Shown one piece after another: positions 17,866-20,555 of a stretch of 64,000 nt of DNA; position 1 is the first letter of the stretch; every line of letters begins with the position of its first letter. Position numbers and translations under genes: made by a program. This stretch comes from Escherichia coli (lineage in GTDB: Bacteria > Pseudomonadota > Gammaproteobacteria > Enterobacterales > Enterobacteriaceae), in the NCBI RefSeq assembly GCF_003991155.1, contig NZ_CP031293.1; one strand, 5' to 3'. Below the pieces are notes generated by a model, which had not been told where the DNA came from, made no database searches, and saw only the letters and a list, made by a program, of their open reading frames with translations.

Positions 17866-18791
17866 GTATTCGCATAATCCCGCAAGATGAGCTGGGTTCG
17901 AGCGAGAAACGTACGGCGGATATGATTCCGCCGTTATTGTTCCCTCGGCTCAAGAATTTATACAACCGCCGCGCCGAGCGTCTGCGCGAGCTGGCAGAAA
18001 ATAATCCGCTGGGTGATTACCTGCGCTTTGCTGCGCTTATCGCCCACGCCCAGGAAGTGGTGCTGTACGACCATCCGCTGGAGATGGATCTGACCACGCG
18101 CATTAAAGAAGCCAGCGCACAAGGCAAGCCCCCGCTGGATATTCACGTTCTGCCGCGTGATAAGCACTGGCAAAAGCTGCTGATGGCGCTGATTGCTGAG
18201 CTGAAACCTGAAATGAGCGGCCCGGCGCTGGCAGTGATTGAGAATCTGGAGAAGGCATCGACTCAGGAGCTGGAAGATATGGCCAGCGCACTGTTTGCCT
18301 CTGATTTCTCGTCCGTCAGCAGCGATAAAGCGCCGTTTATCTGGGCTGCGCTGTCGCTCTACTGGGCGCAGATGGCTAATCTGATCCCCGGCAAAGCCCG
18401 CGCTGAATACGGCGAACAACGTCAATATTGCCCGGTATGTGGCTCTATGCCGGTGTCCAGCATGGTGCAAATTGGCACCACTCAGGGGCTGCGTTACCTG
18501 CACTGCAACCTGTGTGAAACCGAATGGCACGTAGTGCGCGTAAAATGCAGCAACTGTGAACAGAGCGGCAAACTGCATTACTGGTCGCTGGATGACGAAC
18601 AGGCCGCGATTAAAGCCGAAAGCTGCGATGACTGCGGCACTTACCTGAAGATTCTTTATCAGGAAAAAGAACCGAAAGTTGAAGCCGTGGCAGATGACCT
18701 CGCCTCTCTGGTACTGGACGCGCGAATGGAGCAAGAAGGCTATGCCCGTAGTTCCATCAACCCGTTCCTGTTCCCGGGTGAAGGGGAGTAA
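17862..18791 (+). CDS. fdhE: Formate dehydrogenase formation protein
   Basis: 309 aa with CxxC pairs ([28 protein letters not shown]); overlaps the fdoI stop. Confidence 0.92.
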
Positions 18792-18827
18792 TCTCTGACG
18801 TTTTCCGGGTGGCGCAGGTCGCCCGGA

Positions 18828-19208
18828 TTACAGCTCATAGGGTGTGACGACACCTGCTATTCCCGCAAAATCTCTCGTATTTCGCGTTACCAGTTCAAAG
18901 CCATAAATCTGTGCTGTTGCCAGAATAATGGCATCTGGAAGTTTCATTCTATACTCCTGCCTTAAAGCAACGCTTCGTTCCGCGATATCCTGCGAAATCC
19001 CAATAACGTTAAACGCACTCATTGCAATCCGTGTGCGATGTTCTTGATCATATTTTTTTGCGCCAACCAGCACCTCCATCCATGTGACCAGACTAATCGC
19101 ATTCTGTAGGGGCCATGCCTCCAGAGCCTGTTTTGCCTCAATTCGTCCGCTGAACAAATCGATAAGGATATTGGTATCAAAAAGCGCAGTTCTTTTTGCC
19201 ATTACCAT
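18828..19208 (-). CDS. vapC: PIN-domain ribonuclease toxin, VapC-like
   Basis: 126 aa; N-terminal DTNILID acidic motif typical of PIN/VapC; start overlaps the stop of the upstream RHH gene (ATGGTAA). Confidence 0.75.
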
Positions 19209-19444
19209 TCCTCACGCAGCTTACGCTGATATTCGACACCATCTTCCTCACACCCTTGCCAGATACCAAAAGCACTGGATATTGTCGTTTTCGATTGATT
19301 TTCCAGATATTGATCTACAGCTTCTCGTAATAGCTCTGCGCGAGGAAGATTGCGCTGCACTTTGAGATCATCAAGTCGCTTAATCACCTCATCGGATAAA
19401 TCGAGTAAAATTCTGCCCATATCCATACCTGCCATAGCGCTCAT
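19202..19444 (-). CDS. Ribbon-helix-helix (CopG-like) antitoxin, VapB-like; YiiF-like
   Basis: Start chosen at the ATG preceded by GGAGG ([24 protein letters not shown]...); track ORF extends to 19498. N-terminal beta-strand and helices typical of RHH; stop overlaps vapC start. Confidence 0.65.
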
Positions 19445-19663
19445 ATATACCTCCAGTATATCATTTTTGAATGCATGGTGAGCAAAATACTCTTGCAAAA
19501 CCTTTAAAGAAAGCGCATTTACGCATCATTTTTTATTTTTGCGAGGCGTTTTCCAGATATGATGTAACAGTTGCAGTTATTATAAGTTCAAGTAAAACAA
19601 CCTTGTATTAATACCAGAATAAGGGCATCTGGTTTTTTATATTCAAGAATAAAAAATTTTTTG

Positions 19664-19882
19664 TCATTCCTTATGCTCCTTACACTGATCATCGACACCC
19701 ACTGTCTCCCCCTTTTGCCTGCCTCCCTTTGCTTTACGCACCGGGAATTGCTGACGTTCCAGATATTGCTCTACCGCTTCGCGTAAAATTGCAGATCGTG
19801 AAACCTTACGCCAGCCCCTAAGCTTGTTCAGCCGTTTAATTGCCTCTTCTGATAAATGAAGAAAAACCGTATTCATCGCCAT
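19664..19882 (-). CDS. yiiE: Ribbon-helix-helix (CopG-like) DNA-binding protein, 72 aa
   Basis: MAMNTVFLHLSEEAIKRLNKLRGW...; track ORF starts at TTG 19888, the ATG at 19882 gives the 72-aa length recalled for K-12 yiiE. Confidence 0.75.
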   Translation of the reverse strand: MAMNTVFLHLSEEAIKRLNKLRGWRKVSRSAILREAVEQYLERQQFPVRKAKGGRQKGETVGVDDQCKEHKE

Positions 19883-20310
19883 TACCAATACCTTATATAT
19901 GACTCATTAATGTATGTGCGAAAATTACGCCGAAAAATCATTTAAAAAAAGCGGATTTTTGCATGCTGTTTTGTTTTTGCGAGACGTTTTCCAGAAATAA
20001 TAAGAACGTTGCAGTTGTTTCATTTGTTAATCAAAAATGGTTTAGTTATCGCCCAGGATGAGATATGGGTGCTATAAATATATTATATTCAGGGATATTT
20101 ATTTTTTGATTGGGTCTTCATTTGCATAATCTGAATGGTGTACCCGAAAAATGTCAGCATCCTAACAGCACCAGGATTTAAGGTGAAATTAATCATCCAT
20201 CACAGACCGGTCTTTACTTGCTCGTCGTTATAATTTTGTTGGTAACAGTTTGGGAAACAAGGAATTCCTTCCGGAACACCCCCGGTATCATCCGATAGCA
20301 TTGACGTCAA

Positions 20311-20336
20311 TCATCGGCGCGACGATGAGTTTTTTT
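20311..20336 (+). terminator. Candidate intrinsic terminator (hairpin plus T-run) on the plus strand in the AT-rich intergenic region
   Basis: tcatcg-gcgcga-cgatga stem-loop followed by gttttttt; no annotated plus-strand gene upstream. Confidence 0.3.
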
Positions 20337-20555
20337 AATCGCATCATAGGGTGGCAACGGTCAGCACGATACGGGTCATAGCAAAACTCCTGCACAGGCG
20401 GCCACTATGCCGCTTTCACAGGAGTTCTGAATGCTAGTGCTTTCTGTATGGCATCGCCATGCCCCTCGCGGCTAAGCGCCTGCACACATCTCTCTTTGAA
20501 TGTCATTTTTGCAATGCATTGTCCGAATTCTGATAATCCTAATGAGTTTTACCCG

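Follow-up and report, generated by a model that had tools for sequence, protein, structure and literature searches.

A terminator-like hairpin between yiiE and fabY of Escherichia coli as the probable scar of a deletion joining two small antisense reading frames

Intrinsic terminators, small RNAs of described families and gene remnants are each recognised by hallmarks of their own. For an intrinsic terminator these are a stem clearly stabler than background, a U-rich tract directly 3' of that stem, a position at the 3' end of a co-oriented gene or RNA, and retention of the stem among relatives; for a small RNA in Rfam, a covariance-model match near the gathering score; and for a gene remnant, homology to open reading frames (ORFs) that are intact at the same locus elsewhere, disabling lesions, and variation that appears neutral. 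Genuine terminators found in the DNA analysed here (those of Spot 42, CsrC and rrn) have hairpin energies of -14 to -22 kcal/mol. The stem-loop that forms the subject of this report displays the second of the four terminator hallmarks (a single G, then T7) and lacks the other three; the region around it matches no covariance model near its gathering score; and it bears all three marks of a remnant, the lesions comprising a stop codon, a frameshift, a 1-nt deletion and the loss of ~420 bp. It is likely, in our assessment, that the hairpin and its T-run are a by-product of gene decay (a 'deletion scar') and not an evolved terminator.

The window (the whole stretch of DNA that was analysed, a 64-kb segment of E. 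coli chromosome) includes a variable spot between yiiE and fabY. The genes fdoH, fdoI and fdhE are on its plus strand and the vapC/RHH pair, yiiE, a 604/617-aa ORF, fabY and dtd on its minus strand; the hairpin site is within the 667-bp gap separating yiiE from the 604-aa ORF (Table 1). A preliminary description of this DNA had reported an orphan plus-strand hairpin and T-run in an AT-rich spacer, with no plus-strand gene upstream, and had suggested, on support that it called weak, either that it terminates the transcript of a small RNA or small peptide or that it is a relic. The letters are indeed present at that place and on that strand, no plus-strand gene lies upstream, and all of the real surrounding genes are on the minus strand. 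The spacer is AT-rich in its first half (GC of 0.35 over 19950-20249), but not around the hairpin (0.44-0.49). Many sequenced E. coli strains match the window at 100% identity over 19900-20560. None of the retrieved or listed records that contain the junction described below carries any annotation over it, and the RefSeq record of MG1655 has no feature between fabY and yiiE (no sRNA and no small protein). The interval as a whole exhibits three main architectures, with alleles that differ by ~20%; despite that divergence, most strains of each architecture have WP_001295676.1 annotated as their YiiE, and the interval also contains several small deletions between 7-nt direct repeats and, in strain J3, an IS1 insertion. 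An origin in a mobile element or phage was considered and rejected on the grounds that there are no true plasmid or phage matches: the four 'plasmid' matches are chromosome-sized E. coli records (1.0-4.9 Mb), three of which carry the deletion-type allele.

Table 1. Features of the yiiE-fabY interval, in window coordinates unless prefixed L007.
Feature	Position	Strand	Details
yiiE	19664-19888	minus	
Promoter-like match	20058-20086	plus	ATGAGA-17-TATTAT, 9/12; inside/over the small ORF
14-codon ORF MGAINILYSGIFIF	20065-20109	plus	AGGA 6 nt upstream; unconserved as coding
Non-coding block	20110-20204		common to 5,374/5,426 E. coli genomes at 78-100% identity
GACCGGTC	20205-20212		remainder of hairpin GACCGGT-13 nt-ACCGGTC found in other alleles
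92-aa ORF, 3' remnant	20221-20324	minus	residues ~59-92; in-frame stop, frameshift, stop codon lost
Hairpin TCATCGGCGCGACGATGA	20311-20328	plus	TCATCG-GCGCGA-CGATGA
Deletion breakpoint	20325-20329		within 3' arm; relative to EcN/ECamp083-type allele
T7 run	20330-20336	plus	preceded by G at 20329
73-aa ORF, 5' remnant	20330-20379	minus	ATG at 20379-20377
Strong hairpin	20382-20429	minus	3' side ending UUUUG; -28.4 kcal/mol, z -5.1, 0/200 shuffles as good
nadS 3'-end remnant	20468-20497	minus	~30 nt, from alignment; nadS is an antitoxin-like HTH gene
604/617-aa ORF	20556-22409	minus	604 aa from ATG start, 617 aa from GTG start
Intact 92-aa ORF	L007:2673-2951		
Intact 73-aa ORF	L007:3003-3224		

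The stem consists of 6 bp (three of them G-C) and encloses a loop of 6 nt. Its folding energy is -7.0 kcal/mol alone and -7.8 kcal/mol with flanks, and the z-score against dinucleotide shuffles is -0.88, with 30 of 200 shuffles folding equally well or better; the free-energy calculation that the preliminary description had proposed as a check thus yields marginal stability. A scan for the terminator pattern across 18500-22000 (3.5 kb) produced two sites, where 3.1 +/- 2.0 are expected from shuffles. When each run of at least six Ts in the 64-kb window was taken with its best adjacent hairpin, the one adjacent to this run ranked 28th in energy among the 94 such runs on both strands. A search of the whole window against Rfam at the gathering threshold returned nothing relevant, and at E <= 10 there was no match within 19800-20700 with an E value below 2, the best being CRISPR-DR32 (19 bits against a gathering score of 48; E = 2.2).

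The source of these letters can be read from other strains. In EcN and ECamp083, the homologous interval is ~400 bp longer and contains a pair of small minus-strand ORFs: one encodes 92 aa (WP_001296612/WP_001315112) and the other, which lies upstream of it, 73 aa (WP_001550354). PGAP terms both hypothetical proteins, and both are preceded by a nadS/higB-like pair. The window aligns to that allele at the outer ends of the ORF pair only: in tblastn, residues 59-90 of the 92-aa ORF match 20230-20324 on the minus strand (RRADD*RQCYRMIPG / GGVPEGIPCFPNCYQQNY) and residues 5-17 of the 73-aa ORF match 20330-20368 (RAERRHHMARLKK versus RADRCHPMMRLKK), and a 1-nt deletion after codon 3 of the latter leaves a reading frame of 11 codons, MTRIVLTVATL*. 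The last ~35 codons of the 92-aa ORF are joined in this way to the first ~17 codons of the 73-aa ORF, with ~420 bp missing. Because homology to the one stops at 20324 and homology to the other begins at 20330, the breakpoint lies within 20325-20329, an interval to which its resolution is limited by the ~20% difference between long and short alleles; a short CG-rich similarity (ACGGC) is found at both breakpoints and is not decisive.

Neither of the two ORFs gives anything significant in Pfam, NCBIfam, PHROGs or PADLOC. The 92-aa ORF is represented by 15 protein clusters, all E. coli-like, and the 73-aa ORF by 30, of which three lower-identity loci were inspected and found to be the same DNA with homopolymer frameshifts. 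Both proteins are confined to Escherichia and their reality as proteins is unproven, which leaves the deletion argument unaffected. The homopolymer that is homologous to the T-run of the window (L003:3170-3180 and L007:3172-3180) is itself variable in length: in ECamp083 it is A7 and the 73-aa ORF, with a hydrophobic segment, is annotated; in EcN it is A8, the frame shifts to a Cys/Arg-rich product of 70 aa, and the ORF is unannotated. Several database 'homologues' at 60-70% identity correspond to the same DNA with homopolymer frameshifts.

Each part of the reported element can be assigned to one side of this junction or to the junction itself. Codons R59-A-D-D of the 92-aa ORF, read in antisense, make up the 5' arm, the loop and the first 2 nt of the 3' arm; the last 4 nt of that arm lie on the deletion junction; and the T7 run corresponds, in antisense, to AAA AAA (Lys16-Lys17) of the 73-aa ORF together with the first base of its Leu15 codon, a position at which the intact gene has A7 or A8. 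The corresponding 18-mer of the intact 92-aa ORF (TCATCTGCGCGACGGCGA) does not form the reported hairpin, which argues that the 'terminator' is an accident of the fusion. The suggestion of a relic in the preliminary description is therefore essentially right, and can be stated more precisely, as the scar that a ~420-bp deletion left where it fused two small minus-strand ORFs.

Among 5,426 complete E. coli genomes, the junction is found in 2,101 (280 of which share at least 99% identity with the window across the 81 nt of 20285-20365), and the undeleted segment with intact 92-aa and 73-aa ORFs in 1,271. Most of the remaining genomes, K-12 included, have a larger deletion that spares only the counterpart of 20064-20257, and in the K-12-type allele this block directly adjoins codons 1-39 of the 604-aa gene. 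The hairpin is altogether absent from ~37% of the genomes, and 23% have coding sequence in its place. In CP52E, EM06-18-14 and ETEC-2265 the junction lies beside an intact nadS, and in other strains (the window included) it lies beside a nadS tail of ~30 nt and the 604-aa gene; since it is found in both contexts, it must be older than its present neighbours. At the counterpart of that tail, nadS is intact in CP52E, ETEC-2265, EcN and ECamp083. A near-verbatim copy of the E. coli junction allele also occurs in a 445-bp contig, with a coverage of 0.76, from an assembly of Micromonospora craterilacus (NZ_POTY01000570.1; L011), and is almost certainly contamination.

Nine junction alleles were compared, and yield five natural variants of the hairpin (TCATCGGCGCGACGATGA, ..GGCTCGACGGTGA, ..GGCGCGACGGTGA, ..AGCGCGACGATGA and ..AGCGCGACGGTGA), with energies of -7.0, -6.4, -6.4, -3.5 and -2.9 kcal/mol; the allele of the window is the most stable of them. 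One variant (G>A) destroys the closing G-C pair and another (A<>G) exchanges A-U for G-U, and no compensatory change in the stem was found among the nine alleles. Variable sites make up 3 of 18 positions in the hairpin (17%) versus 30 of 204 in its flanks (15%). Conservation, which had also been put forward as a check, thus speaks against a maintained structure: the hairpin varies as fast as its surroundings, without compensation, and its energy drops as low as -2.9 kcal/mol. All 12 junction-type sequences have the T7 run unchanged, and likewise the next 16 bases.

A far more terminator-like hairpin than the reported one is present on the opposite strand at 20382-20429. It is kept in all alleles, contains the Shine-Dalgarno sequence of the 73-aa ORF (CAGGAG, 20392-20387), and is probably the terminator of the nadS operon, now located downstream of the 604-aa gene. 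Another stem-loop, GACCGGT-13 nt-ACCGGTC, is found just 3' of the 92-aa ORF in other alleles, and in K-12 folds at -20.3 kcal/mol when read from the minus strand and at -13.6 kcal/mol when read from the plus strand; it is missing from the window allele, where a 20-bp deletion has occurred between two direct repeats of ACCGGTC. With -28.4 and -20.3 kcal/mol, the stable hairpins of this locus are biased towards the minus strand, which is consistent with an ancestral transcription unit on that strand.

The preliminary description had also pointed to a 14-codon ORF upstream of the hairpin, and this ORF is present; its K-12 counterpart spans 4,079,106 to 4,079,056 on the minus strand. In CP52E its ATG is replaced by ATA and its Shine-Dalgarno sequence is lost; in SCPM-O-B-8794 codon 9 is changed from TCA to TGA; the Shine-Dalgarno sequence reads AAGA in EC1 and SCPM and is kept as AGGA in most strains; and among alleles the 3' end is altered by an indel of 19 bp flanked by TTTATTT repeats, or by indels of 3-4 bp. 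A real small protein from this ORF was accordingly rejected (loss of the start, a nonsense codon and indels elsewhere; no such gene in K-12 RefSeq). The promoter-like match at the same place is the only one on the plus strand upstream of the hairpin, and promoter-like sites in the region (7, against 8.4 +/- 3.3 expected) show no enrichment. Next to the ORF lies the non-coding block, the 22-mer core of which is found, among 100,044 species representatives, in E. coli only, save for one Micromonospora contig (445 bp, low coverage). On the two strands, RNAalifold-type folding of 12 distinct alleles yielded 1 and 0 compensatory pairs; a structured RNA in this block was rejected, with essentially no covariation and only the obvious stem-loop predicted consistently.

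Published transcript ends are available for K-12. The curated Term-seq 3' ends of that strain (Adams et al. 2021, PMC7815308) include no entry at 4,078,9xx-4,079,1xx, a result that bears on the upstream block only, K-12 being without the hairpin. The nearest relevant signals are the fdhE terminator at 4,080,258 (-) and a strong Rho-dependent region (score 13.3) antisense to yiiF at 4,079,994 (-) (PMC7815308). The second of these corresponds approximately to the plus strand of the window near 19250-19500, and its position antisense to yiiF implies that read-through from fdhE enters on the window plus strand and is halted by Rho. The O157:H7 Sakai strain carries the junction allele, with the hairpin at 4,877,579-4,877,604 of NC_002695.2; the plus strand of the window corresponds there to the minus strand of the record.

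Two observations sit less comfortably with a scar. The T7 run does not vary among the 12 junction-type sequences, and seven uninterrupted Us make a good terminator tail; in addition, the window allele combines the stablest variant of the hairpin with the loss of the stem-loop upstream, so that a plus-strand transcript, if there is any, would arrive at it. The same tail, starting 1 nt after the stem-loop, is an argument for a working intrinsic terminator of a short plus-strand transcript (an sRNA, or the mRNA of the 14-codon ORF) that would start divergently from yiiE or at the promoter-like match at 20058-20086, and that match adds to it, as does the ORF, of which nearly every E. coli has some form and which carries AGGA 6 nt before its start. 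Set against these points are a hairpin that is marginal in the window (z -0.88) and degrades uncompensated to -2.9 kcal/mol in natural alleles; an ORF that has decayed, with its start lost in CP52E, a stop gained in SCPM and frame-changing indels; promoter-like sites that are unenriched and include no significant promoter; the absence of an Rfam family and of covariation; a homologous block in K-12 for which the curated Term-seq tables give no 3' end and in which neither an sRNA nor a small protein is annotated; and a population in which so many genomes lack the hairpin (~37%) or have coding sequence instead (23%). The proposal that the hairpin terminates a small RNA or small-peptide transcript is not borne out by these results, and we regard a working terminator of that kind as very unlikely. 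A U7 tail behind a 6-bp stem is within the range able to give partial termination, and the deletion might have created an accidental but real weak terminator, tolerated or mildly favoured and not an evolved unit, that damps stray plus-strand (antisense) transcription before it reaches the 3' end of the 604-aa gene. The loss of the upstream stem-loop in the window allele would be in keeping with this, as would the fact that fdhE read-through in K-12 needs Rho inside yiiF, which points to some plus-strand transcription nearby; however, the stem bears no sign of selection, Rho and the fdhE terminator act ~1 kb upstream, and the opposite-strand yiiE and vapBC genes lie in between, so that this too is decidedly unlikely.

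The element might instead matter on the minus strand, either as part of the 3' UTR of the transcript of the 604-aa gene or nadS, or through a chimeric small ORF generated by the fusion. The Shine-Dalgarno sequence and ATG of the 73-aa ORF are kept (20392-20377); the alignment shows a frame that is open across the junction in EM06, ETEC-2265, CP52E and SCPM, giving a chimeric ORF of ~30 codons in alleles without the 1-nt deletion; and the ancestral unit was on this strand. However, the hairpin of -28.4 kcal/mol and its U-run, which are upstream on the minus strand, sequester the Shine-Dalgarno sequence, the ORF of the window is cut to 11 codons, and the homopolymer precedes rather than follows the reported hairpin when read in this direction, and a minus-strand role appears extremely improbable. 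Some termination of plus-strand transcripts at the hairpin, incidental or real, is on the whole unlikely. It is highly improbable that two antisense coding pieces have yielded a terminator de novo, which, with the older upstream stem-loop gone from the window allele through the 20-bp deletion, would form the 3' end of a plus-strand RNA of ~240 nt from near 20093; if they had, the locus would constitute a small natural case of terminator birth and of 3'-end relocation in a young, E. coli-specific transcript.

The deletion scar, the reading that we prefer, would have arisen as follows. The ancestral minus-strand order from fabY to yiiE would have been the higB-like gene, nadS, the 73-aa ORF, the 92-aa ORF, the stem-loop and yiiE. 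A deletion of ~420 bp would then have taken away three-quarters of the 73-aa ORF from its 3' side and two-thirds of the 92-aa ORF from its 5' side. On the plus strand, the 5' arm and loop would come from the antisense of the 92-aa ...RRADD... segment, the complementary 3' arm from the junction, and the T7 run from the antisense of the Lys-Lys pair of the 73-aa ORF. After the deletion the remnants would have drifted neutrally, acquiring a stop codon and frameshifts and losing further small segments between short direct repeats, and any plus-strand transcript that arrives at the hairpin might be weakly and incidentally terminated. The homology, the breakpoint, the lesions, the folding energy, the population counts and the pattern of polymorphism are matters of direct observation; the direction of the event (a deletion, not an insertion) and the lack of function of the hairpin are inferred.

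Several features of the neighbouring genes deserve a brief description in their own right. The 604-aa ORF (20556-22409), which is uninterrupted in the window, has no match in Pfam, NCBIfam, PHROG, PADLOC or PDB sequences; its exact sequence is found on 469 contigs, where it is always named 'hypothetical' or 'transposase'. The gene is split in two in O157 Sakai (ECs_4812/4813), and only 39 of its codons are kept in K-12. It contains the sequence GCKSAKDRT. The motif CKSAKDR is the P-loop given for mammalian inositol polyphosphate 4-phosphatases, and SopB/IpgD have NCKSGKDR (PMC3091653); the CKSAKDR of the 604-aa ORF is one residue from the latter. The product may be an uncharacterised phosphoinositide-phosphatase-like protein. 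Upstream of the vapB/yiiF-like ribbon-helix-helix (RHH) gene and of yiiE lie two paralogous regions of ~135 nt (19447-19582 and 19888-20020; alignment score 86, against a shuffle maximum of 29), which suggests that an RHH gene was duplicated in tandem together with its promoter/operator. The possibility that the relic is a decayed third yiiE/yiiF paralogue was considered and rejected: the gene body has no similarity by blastn or tblastx, and only the ~135-nt upstream regions are paralogous. In the window strain a vapC toxin gene overlaps the RHH gene (18828-19498, minus strand); at that position K-12 carries yiiF alone and, after fdhE, a gap of 330 bp, so that the YiiF of K-12 may be an orphan VapB-type antitoxin. 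A literature search with yiiE/yiiF and the ECs4812-4814 locus tags gave nothing useful.

The locus offers a caution for the annotation of bacterial genomes, namely that an orphan hairpin followed by a T-run can arise when a deletion joins antisense coding fragments (here of Arg/Asp and Lys-Lys codons), and that a comparison of strains exposes such scars at once. It also documents the yiiE-fabY interval as a decaying, E. coli-specific variable spot.

When placed beside the known systems that it most resembles, the element shares with the E. coli intrinsic terminators of Spot 42, CsrC and rrn a stem-loop followed within 1 nt by an uninterrupted U7, and differs from them as follows: its stem has 6 bp with three G-C pairs and an energy of -7 to -8 rather than -14 to -22 kcal/mol, it has no transcription unit upstream on the same strand, its stem is unconserved among alleles, and its origin is a deletion junction. 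With Hfq-type sRNAs and type I toxin-like small ORFs it has in common a short hydrophobic ORF, an intergenic site and a downstream hairpin with a U tail; here, in contrast, there is no Rfam match and no covariation, the ORF is unconserved as coding sequence, ~200 nt of decayed antisense coding sequence intervene between ORF and hairpin, and K-12 has no annotated counterpart. It also resembles the pseudogene decay and deletion scars of variable intergenic spots on the E. coli chromosome, with which it shares homology to ORFs that are intact elsewhere, stops and frameshifts, small deletions between direct repeats (20 bp at ACCGGTC and 19 bp at TTTATTT) and polymorphism on a par with that of its flanks; from ordinary scars of this kind nothing notable sets it apart except the terminator-like look of its junction, on the antisense strand.
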